A stretch of DNA of 64,000 bases from Escherichia coli (GTDB lineage Bacteria > Pseudomonadota > Gammaproteobacteria > Enterobacterales > Enterobacteriaceae), in NCBI RefSeq assembly GCF_041248615.1, contig NZ_CP158425.1; one strand, written 5' to 3'. The first letter of the stretch is position 1. The number at the start of each line of letters is the position of its first letter. This document shows, piece by piece, positions 1 to 6,000 of the stretch. The position numbers were made by a program.

Positions 1-3000
1 TGCAGCATACTTCTGTGTGGTACCGACGCTCGGTCAGTCCGTTTGTTCTTGTGGCGAGTGTTGCCGTTTTCTTGACCGCGACCGCCAATCTTACCTTTTT
101 TGATAAAATCAGCCAAACCTATCCCATCGCGGACAATCTCGGCTTTGTGCTGACGATCGCTGTCGTGCTCTTTGGCGCGATGCTACTGATCACCACGCTG
201 TTATCATCGTATCGCTATGTGCTAAAGCCTGTGTTGATTTTGCTATTAATCATGGGCGCGGTGACCAGTTATTTTACTGACACTTATGGCACGGTCTATG
301 ATACGACCATGCTCCAAAATGCCCTACAGACCGACCAAGCCGAGACCAAGGATCTATTAAACGCAGCGTTTATCATGCGTATCATTGGTTTGGGTGTGCT
401 ACCAAGTTTGCTTGTGGCTTTTGTTAAGGTGGATTATCCGACTTGGGGCAAGGGTTTGATGCGCCGATTGGGCTTGATCGTGGCAAGTCTTGCGCTGATT
501 TTACTGCCTGTGGTGGCGTTCAGCAGTCATTATGCCAGTTTCTTTCGCGTGCATAAGCCGCTGCGTAGCTATGTCAATCCGATCATGCCAATCTACTCGG
601 TGGGTAAGCTTGCCAGTATTGAGTATAAAAAAGCCAGTGCGCCAAAAGATACCATTTATCACGCCAAAGACGCGGTACAAGCAACCAAGCCTGATATGCG
701 TAAGCCACGCCTAGTGGTGTTCGTCGTCGGTGAGACGGCACGCGCCGATCATGTCAGCTTCAATGGCTATGAGCGCGATACTTTCCCACAGCTTGCCAAG
801 ATCGATGGCGTGACCAATTTTAGCAATGTCACATCGTGCGGCACATCGACGGCGTATTCTGTGCCGTGTATGTTCAGCTATCTGGGCGCGGATGAGTATG
901 ATGTCGATACCGCCAAATACCAAGAAAATGTGCTGGATACGCTGGATCGCTTGGGCGTAAGTATCTTGTGGCGTGATAATAATTCGGACTCAAAAGGCGT
1001 GATGGATAAGCTGCCAAAAGCGCAATTTGCCGATTATAAATCCGCGACCAACAACGCCATCTGCAACACCAATCCTTATAACGAATGCCGCGATGTCGGT
1101 ATGCTCGTTGGCTTAGATGACTTTGTCGCTGCCAATAACGGCAAAGATATGCTGATCATGCTGCACCAAATGGGCAATCACGGGCCTGCGTATTTTAAGC
1201 GATATGATGAAAAGTTTGCCAAATTCACGCCAGTGTGTGAAGGTAATGAGCTTGCCAAGTGCGAACATCAGTCCTTGATCAATGCTTATGACAATGCCTT
1301 GCTTGCCACCGATGATTTCATCGCTCAAAGTATCCAGTGGCTGCAGACGCACAGCAATGCCTATGATGTCTCAATGCTGTATGTCAGCGATCATGGCGAA
1401 AGTCTGGGTGAGAACGGTGTCTATCTACATGGTATGCCAAATGCCTTTGCACCAAAAGAACAGCGCAGTGTGCCTGCATTTTTCTGGACGGATAAGCAAA
1501 CTGGCATCACGCCAATGGCAACCGATACCGTCCTGACCCATGACGCGATCACGCCGACATTATTAAAGCTGTTTGATGTCACCGCGGACAAAGTCAAAGA
1601 CCGCACCGCATTCATCCGCTGATTTCTCCCTGTATTTTTTCCAAACCCACCGCACACTCCATTCGTATTATGGGCGGTGGGGTGGGGTTTGTTATGCCGT
1701 ATTTATCAAATAAACGCCTACTTGCTGAGATGAGTATCGCTCTTGTCATGGCGATCGTTGCCACGCTGACCCTTGAGCACAGTCAGATTGATCTGATGGT
1801 CGCTGATTGGTTTTATCTGGGTATGGGGCATTGGATGGTTGCCAAGCAAGCTTTTTTGCCAGATTTGCTACTGTATTCTGGCTTGAATTGTCAAACCAAG
1901 TGCAACGATTTTTTGAAGTAAACTTCATAAGGTGTTTTCCAACCTAAACATTTACGTGGTCGTAAATTCAGTTTATTGATCACCTGTTGAATATCAACTT
2001 CGCTCCACTGATTGATGTCTTGGTGCTTCGGAAAGTATTCACGAAGTAACCCATTTGTATTTTCATTCGTTCCCCGTGTCCACGGTTGATGCGGCTCGGG
2101 GAAGTAAAATTCTACACCCAGTGCTTCTGTTACCAAACGATGTTGGGCAAATTCTTTACCACGGTCTGGCGTAATTGACCGCAATATATGTGAATCCAGC
2201 AATTCAATCATGGCTTTTTGGACTGCTTCGGCTTTTTTGGCAGGAATTTTCTTCACCAACTCAAAACGACTTTTGCGTTCCGTCAGCGTCAGCAAACAAG
2301 CTCCACCCGCTTTACCCAGTACGGTATCGGCTTCCCAATGTCCAAAGCGACTGCGATTTTGCGCCGAAATGGGACGGTCGTTCAAATGGTTGGATATCTG
2401 AATTTTGCCACGTTTTTCATGATGATTTTTTGTATGCCGTGTTTTGCCTTTGTGGCGCAGTTTGCGACTGGCTTTGCGTTCGCCTATATCAAACAACCCT
2501 GAATAAATACCACGATAAATGGTTGAATAACTAATGGATAATTCAGATTTTTCCAATTTTAATCGTGCGCTGATTTGTTCGGGCGACCAGTTTTCTGTCA
2601 GAAACTTTTCTTGCACCAAATTGAAATATTCAGGCTGCTCTAATTTGCGCTGTGCTTTGCTATTTTGACGATGCTTCAAATAGCTGTTTTGTGCGTTCGT
2701 TGCACTGTAGCTTTCTAGAGCGTGTCGTTTCAGCTCGCGAGAAATGGTGCTGGAGCTACGTCCCAGTGCTTTGGCAATTTCTGCTTGTTTTTTGCCCTGT
2801 GCGAGTAAAATCATTATCTTTTCTCGCTCGTTTATTGTAAGATGTCGGTAGGAAGTACTCATCATTTGGAAATGGTTTTTGTGTGGAAACAAAATTATAT
2901 TCTAGTTGATGAGTACTTCTTTTTTTGTTGCACTTGGATTGTAAATTCAGCCGATTAAACTTGTTCACCCTTCTTAAAAAACACCCACGCAAGCCCTGCC

Positions 3001-6000
3001 GACATCGCCCACGCAAGCATCATCGACACCACCGTATGGCTCAAAAAATGATCGCCAATAATCATCTTATAGCAGCCCATCGCCCAGCCCAATGCCATCA
3101 CCACGATGATGATCGCACCACGACGGCGGCGCAAACTTGGCGCAAACGCAAAGGCAAACAGCGCAAATCCGCTACTGGCATGCGCCGCAGGAAAGCACTT
3201 ATCAGGAATGGTGTTACGCATACTATCAAGCATCGGCAAATACGGCAGCGTACCATCAAAAATCGTCAAATGCACAGGGCAGACCACATGAGTATATGCC
3301 TTCAATGACGCGACAACTGTCGGCACTAGGATCAAAGTCAGCACCAGATACGCAAGCTCACGCACGCGAAATTTTGTCACTGGGACAAGCCACTTGGCAG
3401 TGATAGCATTGCCCTTTTTCTCATGATAAGCACGGCAAATGGTCGCAACCAGCAAGTAGATCAGCATCGCCATCAGCAGCTTTTTTAGTCCTCGCATTCG
3501 TCGTGCGAAGCGCATGACCAGAGTACTGAAAGCTCTATATCGCCGCTTTCGGTGGGTGTACCTGTCAGCAACTTATGCTCTTTGTCAAAGGTCAGGCCAA
3601 TGTTCCTGGGAAAGACAACGTCCCTGACAGTAGCCTGCTGGCCCTCATCCAGAACTATAGCAACCGGCGAAGAGAAACGTTCGCCTGCGCGGGCGTTGGG
3701 AATAACTATTTTAGCTCTCGGGGGAACGGCAGGTGGCACAGCTAATCCGGCCCGCTGCTGGCCTGTCGGTATCTGCCCGGGTTTTAATACCAGGGAAGAC
3801 AGGTTTTCGTCTTCCCTCTGTGCTGGTTTATCAAATTCGTAATAAGGCATCAGCTTCCAGAACGGAGGATGAGGTTCATTTTCTGGCAGGGGTTGCAGTA
3901 ATGGTGTATCGGTAGCGTCAATGCCCGGGTTATCAGCATCACTTACGACCGTTTGTTGCTGATCGGAAAGGCTGGATGCTGACGAGGGGGCGATCTCTGC
4001 GTCGTTATAACCTTCGCTAACCCGCGCAGATAAACCCTGTGCAAGGCTCTCAATCCGCTCTTTAAGCCGCATAATCTCTTCAGTAAGGGAAGGGTCGTGC
4101 GATAGAAGAAAAAGCCGCTCACCTTCTACAGGGTGGCCCAGCTCAGACAGCACTAAGCGGATAATCTTCTCTTCAAGTAAAACATTTTGCGACATCAACC
4201 TCTCCCTCTGTTTACGTCGAAGTTAGTGTTTCCGCCATCATTGCTGAATGACAGACCTGTTTCACACCACGGGCAGATCACGTCATCCGGGCCGTCAATG
4301 CACAGCAATTTTCCGCATGAGCACAGGGCAAACGCACTGGCATTACCGCAGTGAGGGCAACCCGGTACGCCATGCAGTTCGCTGGTGTTTACCTGCAAAC
4401 CGGTAGCGGTGGCATCTGACCATGCAAAATAGTCCTCATCGATGGGATAGCATCCGGCAATATTAAAGCTGTTCAGGTTCAGGCTGAAATCGAGCCCGGA
4501 AATCCTTGCTGGTGGCCGTTCATACTTCATCAGATACGGACGACGGGTCTTGCTGCAACGGCCGGTAAGCGTAACGCAGTTTTCGTCGTACGCTTTTACT
4601 GGCTCGTCCTTGGCCAGCCGGACTATGTATTCAGTCTGGCTGAGCTCAGGTTGTTTGTCGTCTCCGACGCTGCGGCTGTGCGCCGTAACCGAGGCTGTGA
4701 TCCATTTGATGAAGCGGGTAAAGTCCCCTTCCTGAGACTCGGTGAACAGCATGACATTCTCTGTCAGTTGCCGCAGGGTATTCAGGTCCGCTGACGGCCC
4801 CAGGCCAACGGCAATGAGATTCACTTTACTCGCGTAGTGATCCTTCCAGCGCTTCACTTCTGCGGTTGTGTCGTCAGTCGGACGTCCGTCGGTAAGGAGA
4901 TACACGACGGGTTTCCAGTCGCCTTTAGCCTCATGAGTGGTTTTTCTGACCTGGGTATCAATTTGTACGGTCAGCTCACGCAATGCGGCCCCAAGGCTCG
5001 TACCGCCGCCAACGGGAAGGCGGGGAGGGTAGAACGAGGCAATTTCGTGAAGAGGTACAATCGTACGGGCTACACCGGCAAATGCGATTACCGAAACCCA
5101 GGCTGTTTCAAGTGCGTGTGGATCCTTTCTTAAATCTCCGATGATCATTTGCAGACCATCAGTCATTTTTTTCAGGTTTTCACCAATCATGGACTCTGAA
5201 CAGTCCAGGACAAAAAACACGGGAAGGCGTCTCATAATTTTCCTCGTACGGCTGGTACGGCCAGCAGAAAACGTTGCTGTACAGAAAGGTGCTGCCCGGA
5301 AAGCAGCACCTTTCTGTCTGTCAGAGCACCAGCTGGATTTCTGGTGGAGGAGGGGGAAGGGTATCAGTTCCGTTATTGATCCCCGCGCTTGTGCTGCCGG
5401 AAGACACGCTGGCCGATACCCATTTAAAGAAACCTGCAAACGCGGTTGAATCTAGCGTCTCCAGAGACACAACCTTATCGGTGAGCTGTTTTAAGTGCTC
5501 ATGGCCTGCTTTAGGACCAACGGCGCAGGCAATGATGGATCCGAATCCCCGGCCGCGAATCGCTTTTACCGCTTCACCGTACGCCAGGGCATCAGAAGGG
5601 GTTCCATCAGTCATCAGGAATACCAGAGGACGCCAGTCTCCTTTTGTATCACCATCTGAGCGACGTACATCCCGTTCAACACACTGCATCAGACATTCAA
5701 GGGCAGCACCGGTGAACGTCCCGCCTGCGCTTGGCACAACGATGTCAGAAAACTGGAAGTCTTCCAGCGGCGTGAGAGGAATGAACTCACGCGCCTCATT
5801 GTCATAGGTGATAATGGAGATATGAACGCTTTCGAGGGCGTAGGGATCCTGGCGAAGAGCGCTAAGCATCGCCTGAATTCCAACGTTAACGGAATGGATG
5901 GACTCACCGCGCATCGAGCCGGATGTGTCGATAACAAGGTAAACAGGCAGGCGGCGCATCACATGTAATTCCTCAGGTGCGAGACAAACGAATCTGATTC

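Follow-up and report, generated by a model that had tools for sequence, protein, structure and literature searches.

A Tn6330-type mcr-1 unit with an inverted ISApl1 end and a split pap2 beside a truncated phosphatase gene in an Escherichia coli IncHI2 plasmid

Introduction

Tn6330 carries mcr-1 and pap2 (also hpap2) between two copies of the insertion sequence (IS) ISApl1, in the order ISApl1-mcr-1-pap2-ISApl1. ISApl1 is described as having 2-bp target duplications and CG/AT inside ends (PMC5821093), and its loss has been attributed to a process related to copy-out-paste-in (Snesrud et al., PMC5821093). Four plasmids (KU743384, KY689632, KY689633 and LT599829) are entered as 'Composite, site 28, Inverted end' in Table S1 of Snesrud et al. 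2018; this variant is undiscussed in the main text and is listed in that table alone. A drawing of one plasmid, pSA26-MCR-1, places ISApl1 and then pap2 downstream of mcr-1 (PMC8069611). Here we analyse the interval 2955-5235 of a 64,000-nucleotide stretch of Escherichia coli DNA (contig NZ_CP158425.1 of assembly GCF_041248615.1; hereafter the window), in which such an mcr-1 unit lies at the edge of the tellurite-resistance neighbourhood (terY, terX) of an IncHI2 plasmid.

Two further systems bear on this locus. The TerY-P triad, which comprises a TerY-like VWA protein, a PP2C phosphatase and a Ser/Thr kinase (Anantharaman et al. 2012), is a predicted metal-sensing phospho-switch (summarised in PMC10542128), and TerY-P-like modules were later shown to act in anti-phage defence (PMC10542128). 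The product of hpap2 departs from the His-Asp-His triad of PAP2 phosphatases at the Asp (Gallardo et al. 2020, PMC7559476). Its expression gave no rise in bacitracin resistance, from which those authors concluded that it has no undecaprenyl pyrophosphate phosphatase activity; mcr-1 alone suffices for resistance and co-expression of hpap2 raises the colistin minimum inhibitory concentration only slightly (PMC7559476).

We find that the window is a pSA26-MCR-1/pSA186_MCR1-type IncHI2 plasmid. Its positions 1..9000 are 99.99% identical to pSA186_MCR1 (NZ_CP022735.1), a 241.6-kb IncHI2 plasmid whose host is a colistin-resistant E. coli of sequence type ST131 from Riyadh. In a reading that we consider very probable as a whole, Tn6330 inserted into a PP2C gene of the IncHI2 backbone and an ISApl1-linked inversion then split pap2.

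Results

The 186-residue reading frame is the 3' part of a split pap2

The interval 2955-5235 holds three open reading frames (ORFs) on the minus strand, of 346, 236-237 and 186 amino acids (aa). The first-pass annotation placed them correctly and took them for three genuine genes, but one of them is an intact gene (TerY-C) and the other two are fragments. The 186-aa ORF (2955..3515) had been recognised as a membrane protein lying across the IS from a truncated pap2 and on the opposite strand, which is correct, and had been proposed as an independent PAP2-like gene. It is instead the missing 3' part of that same pap2.

Window 1..1881 matches positions 5922..4042 of pKP13 (L003), an intact IncX4 mcr-1 cassette, at 100% identity, and window 2949..3491 matches L003 3501..4043, again at 100%, in the orientation opposite to the first match. 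Jointly the two pieces span the 2,609-bp mcr-1-pap2 cassette and overlap by exactly 2 bp (GG). The 5' fragment of pap2 (1670..1881, plus strand) encodes residues 1-72, with the first base of ISApl1 completing codon 72, and its ORF runs on into the IS to position 1921, so that residue mapping resolves this 83-aa ORF into pap2 residues 1-72 and 11 residues read from ISApl1. The 3' fragment (2955..3491, minus strand) is inverted, is 100% identical to L003 and encodes residues 71-248 and the stop. Residues 9-186 of the 186-aa ORF are residues 71-248 of WP_077248209.1, and residues 1-8 are foreign, being eight codons (MRFARRMR) of out-of-frame PP2C-gene DNA. The annotation of pSA186_MCR1 (PGAP) gives the 3' fragment as a 172-aa coding sequence (CDS), 'phosphatase PAP2 family protein', shorter than the 186-aa ORF.

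NCBIfam holds a dedicated equivalog model for mcr-1-linked PAP2, NF028536 ('PAP2_near_MCR1'), with a curated cutoff of 475 bits. The intact IncX4 protein scores 547.4 bits, the 83-aa ORF 139.1 bits over profile positions 1-65, and the 186-aa ORF 403.7 bits (E 2.7e-121) over positions 62-237, which is under the cutoff because the ORF is partial. Since both ORFs score below the cutoff, the window holds pap2 in two pieces and not an intact member. The PAP2 fold suggested for the membrane ORF is borne out by this match, by the Pfam PAP2 domain of the intact protein and by its AlphaFold model, whose best matches are of PgpB type.

An independent, possibly backbone-native and dead PAP2-like protein, in an operon with the VWA/zinc-ribbon protein and an acidic protein, would account for ORFs that are co-oriented and overlapping, and the canonical residues (C1 Arg, C2 Ser, C3 Arg and C3 Asp) are indeed replaced. 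In its DNA, however, the ORF shows 100% identity to pap2 from IncX4/IncI2 mcr-1 cassettes, and it stays collinear with that gene as far as the 2-bp target duplication. In the mcr-free IncHI2 backbone that we examined the site holds a full PP2C gene and no such ORF, which is one of the outcomes that the first-pass annotation had itself named as refuting its proposal. Both the start codon of the 186-aa ORF and its 31-nt overlap with the 237-aa ORF are produced by the rearrangement junction 3491/3492, and the substitutions form a conserved subfamily signature (see below). In the database search every plasmid that matched the pap2-fragment DNA was annotated with an mcr-1-linked PAP2 gene, and the match to mcr-free IncHI2 plasmids begins only at the backbone part. 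We therefore give an independent PAP2-like gene practically no credence.

A 1,610-bp inversion relative to canonical Tn6330

An uninverted relative is pRDB9 (pig, Switzerland; L007), which carries a complete, canonical, direct Tn6330 between exactly the outer junctions of the window lineage. On the left, ...TATAG is followed by the left inverted repeat (IRL) of ISApl1 and, on the right, the right inverted repeat (IRR) is followed by TT-TCGCATTCG. Alignment of the window lineage (L001) to pRDB9 gives a collinear block, 1,610 bp inverted at 100% identity (L001 4483..6092 = L007 8050..6441) and a second collinear block. The inversion has the GG of L007 6441-6442 on either side, and the TT at L007 8051-8052, outside IRR, is missing in the window lineage. 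The two lineages thus differ by one inversion of the segment GG-pap2 3' part-CG-ISApl1, with GG duplicated and TT lost.

In the window the inverted segment occupies 1882..3491 and consists of ISApl1, CG and the 3' part of pap2, flanked by GG at 1880-1881 and CC at 3490-3491 as an inverted 2-bp target duplication. ISApl1 itself (1,070 bp, 1882..2951, minus strand, with an annotated ISApl1 transposase) is inverted with respect to mcr-1. Its IRR abuts pap2 at 1881/1882 and its IRL, at 2951, adjoins the ancestral CG inside-end dinucleotide of Tn6330 (2952..2953) and then the pap2 stop codon; this original junction of cassette end and IRL moved along with the inversion. The copy matches the upstream ISApl1 of the same plasmid (L001 1342..2411, outside the window) at 99.8%. 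The upstream copy is followed by AT and the downstream copy by CG, so that both Tn6330 inside-end dinucleotides are kept and, as in Tn6330, two ISApl1 copies flank mcr-1-pap2. They are not direct copies around an intact cassette, as the downstream one is inverted and lies inside pap2, and the outer ends show no 2-bp direct target-site duplication (...TATAG/IRL; IRR/TT in the precursor).

Between the outer flanks 1,477 bp of backbone are absent, namely the 3' part of the PP2C gene, a 25-bp spacer and the 5' 518 bp of a kinase gene, and this sequence has no match elsewhere in the window. We considered the deletion as part of the inversion and rejected this, as the uninverted pRDB9 already has the same outer flanks. 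The sequence at the left breakpoint, TTTTTATAG, recurs as its reverse complement, CTATAAAAA, 12-20 bp ahead of the right breakpoint (mcr-free backbone, L005 16678-16686 and 18144-18152). This match could be a chance one between AT-rich ISApl1 target sites, or could be relevant to the origin of the deletion.

The original right-hand junction is preserved in p1782_2_EMB (NZ_OQ078085.1), a Tn6330 decay intermediate with a direct cassette, in which ISApl1 is cut to 11 nt of IRL and its final 90 nt with IRR; TT and the same PP2C breakpoint come next (L006 6907..7000). Its left flank has a different and larger backbone deletion than the window lineage. The IRR-TT-PP2C junction is carried by five plasmids at 100% and by about 12 decayed forms. 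On the inverted side, a 14-bp microhomology at 3478-3491, where megablast matches to pap2 and backbone overlap, was rejected as a gapped BLAST extension; true backbone identity begins exactly at window 3492.

A different inverted-ISApl1 arrangement is found in pRC960-2 (NZ_KY784668.1, L008 about 3590..4670) and in Klebsiella pneumoniae plasmids, where pap2 is complete but for its extreme end, at which a reverse ISApl1 lies, and the PAP2 CDS is lengthened to 813 bp. This is the 'Inverted End 2' of Snesrud 2018 Table S1 and suggests that the downstream ISApl1 has been inverted repeatedly. A third ISApl1 copy of pSA186_MCR1, at about 167.27 kb inside a gene for a 'nuclease-related domain-containing protein', indicates ISApl1 activity in that plasmid.

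The inverted junctions recur in six IncHI2 plasmids

We searched 72,556 plasmids for the junctions. The exact pap2/PP2C junction occurs in six, all E. coli IncHI2 (CP022735, KU743384, KY689632, KY689633, LT599829 and MN732922), and the same six carry the pap2/IRR junction. About 700 records match the PP2C half of the junction probe only, mostly under an annotated PP2C gene, and in 1,244 records the match extends over at least 80% of window 3400..5300. The arrangement is thus already known and catalogued; no base-level description of it was found in the literature.

The inversion could in principle be an assembly artefact, since misassembly classically arises at repeated 1-kb IS copies and the two-ISApl1 intermediate was not found in the 72,556 plasmids. 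The identical junctions, however, stand in six independently deposited plasmids, which include a PacBio assembly at 186x (PMC6498225) and a Nanopore one (Snesrud 2018 Table S1). A misjoin inside the IS would also yield neither an IS-free pap2/PP2C junction nor a 2-bp inverted target duplication. We regard an artefact as very improbable.

The acidic protein is a stump of a PP2C phosphatase in a TerY-P-type triad

The intact gene of the interval (4195..5235, minus strand) encodes TerY-C, 346 aa (WP_001253653.1), with a Pfam VWA domain at residues 6-160 and the TerY_C metal-binding domain (PF15616) at residues 217-346 (E 4.5e-53). The prediction that this VWA protein is TerY-like and ends in a metal-binding tail, with the Cys motifs CPHCG, CSCG and CPWC, is confirmed. 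It is a backbone gene, annotated in plasmids both with and without mcr-1, including the mcr-free IncHI2 plasmid p1063-MDR. There TerY-C is followed by a 545-aa 'PP2C family serine/threonine-protein phosphatase' and a 499-aa kinase-like protein with kinase-type NCBIfam matches. In the native 545-aa protein Pfam places PP2C_2 at residues 284-529. NCBIfam has no informative family for TerY-C or the native PP2C protein, whose domains came from Pfam.

The second ORF of the window (236/237 aa, 3485..4195/4198, minus strand), which had been described as an acidic protein of unknown kind, is what remains of the N-terminal part of this phosphatase. It is identical to the native protein for 235 residues, encoded by native DNA at 3492..4195, and then takes one codon (Asp) and a stop from pap2 DNA. 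As the stump comprises residues 1-235 and PP2C_2 lies at residues 284-529, the catalytic domain is lost. No match to the stump was found in Pfam, NCBIfam or PADLOC. The retained residues 1-235 are acidic, and the same three collections gave nothing for the N-terminal 283 residues of the native protein (L002 5082..6716). The stop of TerY-C and the start of the PP2C gene overlap as TGATG, preceded by GGGAGAGG as the strong Shine-Dalgarno sequence that had been reported. Translational coupling of the two genes is real and native, and its coupled product is now a remnant.

The kinase gene of the window lineage has lost its 5' 518 bp and keeps its 3' 982 bp to the left of the upstream ISApl1, outside the window (L001 1..1341; L005 15705..17204), so that the mcr-1 unit now lies between the remainder of the kinase gene and TerY-C. 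The phosphatase/kinase pair of a TerY-P-type triad is inactivated in this lineage and TerY-C is intact. PADLOC models gave no match for TerY-C, the native PP2C protein or the terY paralogues, and only generic kinase matches for the kinase. The IncHI2 trio is therefore not assigned to the tested TerY-P defence system.

The chimeric PAP2 fragment is probably non-functional

Relative to the intact protein, the 186-aa ORF is without the first transmembrane helix (TM1) and the following segment, in which W55 is invariant and D41 and Y69 almost so. The N-terminus that it has gained (MRFARRMRGLKK) carries five basic residues, a strongly basic stretch before a helix that must start on the periplasmic side, and upstream of its ATG at 3515 we found no convincing Shine-Dalgarno sequence. 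From the loss of TM1, D41, W55 and Y69, the basic tail and the lack of a clear ribosome-binding site we infer that the chimera is probably non-functional.

The position of the fragment, on the same strand as and directly downstream of TerY-C and the PP2C stump, would also suit a re-wiring of pap2 expression, in which read-through of the terY/TerY-C operon yields a shortened but active PAP2, and the whole Pfam PAP2 region (residues 116-244 of the intact protein) with all three motifs is kept. Such an enzyme would nevertheless have to work without TM1 and the periplasmic segment bearing W55, D41 and Y69, and residues 14-62 form a well-packed helix/hairpin in the AlphaFold model of the intact protein (predicted local distance difference test, pLDDT, 96-98). 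By the positive-inside rule basic residues are disfavoured on the periplasmic side, and here five of them precede a helix that is expected to begin at the periplasmic face. The absence of a good Shine-Dalgarno sequence and the dispensability of hpap2 for mcr-1 resistance (PMC7559476) also speak against re-wiring, and we think it improbable. Loss of function of the chimera is the preferred reading.

The variant PAP2 motifs are conserved across a subfamily

The 186-aa ORF contains the segments FPAAHASSGFA and YKMIIGDHFLSH, which the first-pass annotation compared to degenerate PAP2 motifs. Alignment with PgpB of E. coli pairs FPAAH with FPSGH and YKMIIGDHFLSH with SRLLLGMHWPRD, and the C1 motif of the mcr-1 pap2 protein is K134-x6-C141-P142. 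When the PAP2 protein was searched by sequence against the PDB, PgpB was only a marginal match (E about 6), used for the motif alignment and not as evidence alone; the evidence of membership came from the fold comparison given below. The canonical motifs Kx6RP, PSGH and SRx5Hx3D are replaced by Kx6CP, PAAH and YKx5Hx3H; both catalytic His are kept, and the C1 Arg, C3 Arg and C3 Asp are replaced. These variant residues are present in every copy of mcr-1 pap2, not only in the window fragment.

A search gave 531 matches at E<=1e-10, and we measured the conservation of these residues in 128 full-length representatives from it, at about 30-49% identity. Pro is found at positions 142 and 171 in all 128 sequences. 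Lys at 134, His at 174 and His at 218 are each kept in 126/128, Tyr at 211 and Lys or Gln at 212 in 125/128, and Cys at 141, Ala at 172 and His at 222 in 120/128. An 80-sequence alignment gave the same invariant set. As the signature residues are kept in 120-128 of the 128 relatives, the variant site is under purifying selection and not in decay. The replacements on which the notion of a catalytically dead PAP2 was based are real, and the deviation from the His-Asp-His triad had already been published (PMC7559476), but their conservation and the retention of both catalytic His make a degenerate, dead enzyme the poorer reading.

The intact protein matches Pfam PAP2 (PF01569) at residues 116-244 (E 6.2e-15) and NF028538 ('PAP2 family lipid A phosphatase') at 329.7 bits, above the 275-bit cutoff. 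Its AlphaFold model (pLDDT 93; predicted TM-score, pTM, 0.90) has as top PDB matches PgpB (8BM3; 5JKI with TM 0.57/0.67), PhoN and LpxE. Tentatively, and with less than even confidence, we suggest from these sequence comparisons that the mcr-linked PAP2 clade may be a mechanistically distinct subfamily with its own substrate, rather than a dead enzyme. Its putative signature, put forward with the same reserve, would be Kx6-Cys-Pro / Pro-Ala-Gly/Ala-His / Tyr-Lys/Gln-x5-His-x3-His, with Cys in place of the phosphate-binding Arg and His in place of the charge-relay Asp. Lipid A 1-diphosphate as a candidate substrate is a speculation of Gallardo et al. (PMC7559476). In the window fragment every signature residue is kept, but separation from the conserved N-terminal 70 residues probably leaves it inactive.

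Neighbouring features

To the left of the split pap2 lies mcr-1.1 (1..1622, plus strand), which is 100% identical to the IncX4 cassette of pKP13 and annotated as MCR-1.1 in pSA186_MCR1; the window begins 4 nt inside the gene. The ORF listing gives an IS30-family transposase ORF within ISApl1 (1891..2892, minus strand) and, together with the pSA186_MCR1 annotation, the genes terY, terX and terY to the right of 5235. The terY (VWA) paralogues flanking terX share a 72-bp stretch of 82% identity (5580..5651 and 6889..6959), which is ordinary paralogue similarity.

Discussion

A proposed history of the locus

The gene identities and the inversion are read directly from the alignments; for the order and chemistry of the steps we infer the following history. 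The native backbone would have carried TerY-C, the 545-aa PP2C protein and the protein kinase after terY-terX-terY, as a TerY-P-type phospho-signalling triad. Tn6330 would then have inserted at TT within the PP2C gene, and by the stage represented by pRDB9 the 1,477 bp to its left (PP2C 3' part and kinase 5' part) would already have gone. In the pSA26-MCR-1/pSA186 lineage a 1,610-bp block, made up of the downstream ISApl1 and the neighbouring 3' two-thirds of pap2, would then have flipped as one piece, with breakpoints at GG inside pap2, which was duplicated inverted, and at a point 2 bp outside the IRR of ISApl1, where TT was lost.

A staggered cut made by transposase leaves such a footprint, namely a 2-bp target duplication in inverted form and one breakpoint at the IS terminus or beside it. 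The inversion would accordingly be dependent on the ISApl1 transposase, most likely by a multi-step route. In this route ISApl1 would enter pap2 in reverse and the inverted copies would recombine, or a replicative-type intramolecular inversion would take place, either giving the intermediate pap2'-GG-IS(<-)-'pap2(<-)-CC-IS(->)-TT-PP2C'. In the last step the outer IS would be excised together with TT. Circle formation by IS30-family elements removes the IS and 2 flanking bp. Alternatively, the two target strands in pap2 could be joined in one aberrant event to the 3'-OH of IRR and to the flank 3'-OH that is released 2 nt beyond it.

Three points weigh against this history as we have set it out. 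The two-ISApl1 inversion intermediate (inverted pap2-CC joined to the IRL of a forward ISApl1) occurs in 0 of the 72,556 plasmids; the multi-step route is therefore without an observed intermediate, and we make no choice between the two routes. One-step aberrant strand transfer may have been the route taken. Finally, the proposed non-functionality of the 186-aa chimera is deduced from features of its sequence. The outcome is the same by either route, with pap2 in two probably non-functional pieces, the 236-aa ORF a catalytically empty PP2C stump, and TerY-C and mcr-1 alone intact.

The analysis is mainly a correction, showing that the scar of an IS-mediated inversion could pass for a three-gene operon with a novel pseudo-enzyme. 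The pSA26-MCR-1 lineage keeps colistin resistance despite its split pap2, in agreement with the dispensability of hpap2. The outer ends of the mcr-1 unit are now IRL/IRL and not IRL/IRR, and the unit may therefore be immobilised. The junctions, with their 2-bp inverted target duplication and exactly 2 bp lost outside IRR, are a clean natural record of the chemistry of ISApl1, an IS30-family element. The acquisition of mcr-1 here destroyed a TerY-P-type phosphatase/kinase pair of the IncHI2 ter region.

Comparison with known systems

E. coli and Bacillus subtilis PgpB (4PX7/5JWY/8BM3 and 5JKI) share with the mcr-1 PAP2 the six-helix membrane PAP2 fold and the aligned C2 His and C3 His. The mcr-1 PAP2 differs in having Cys for the C1 Arg, Ala-Ala/Gly for the C2 Ser-Gly, Tyr-Lys/Gln for the C3 Ser-Arg and His for the C3 Asp, changes that are conserved in the subfamily.

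The mcr-free IncHI2 backbone has exactly the gene trio of the TerY-P triad beside terY-terX-terY, although the zinc-binding domain is here on the VWA protein (TerY_C) and not on the kinase. In contrast to the triad, the window has a phosphatase without its catalytic domain and a 5'-truncated kinase gene, the remainder of which lies outside the window.

Compared with canonical Tn6330, as in pRDB9, the window has the downstream ISApl1 and 538 bp of pap2 inverted, pap2 split and no flanking direct target-site duplication. The 'inverted end' variant of Tn6330 (pSA26-MCR-1, KU743384; p19M12; p100R; p14408_M1) has the same junctions base for base at the same IncHI2 site, and the window is a member of this group.

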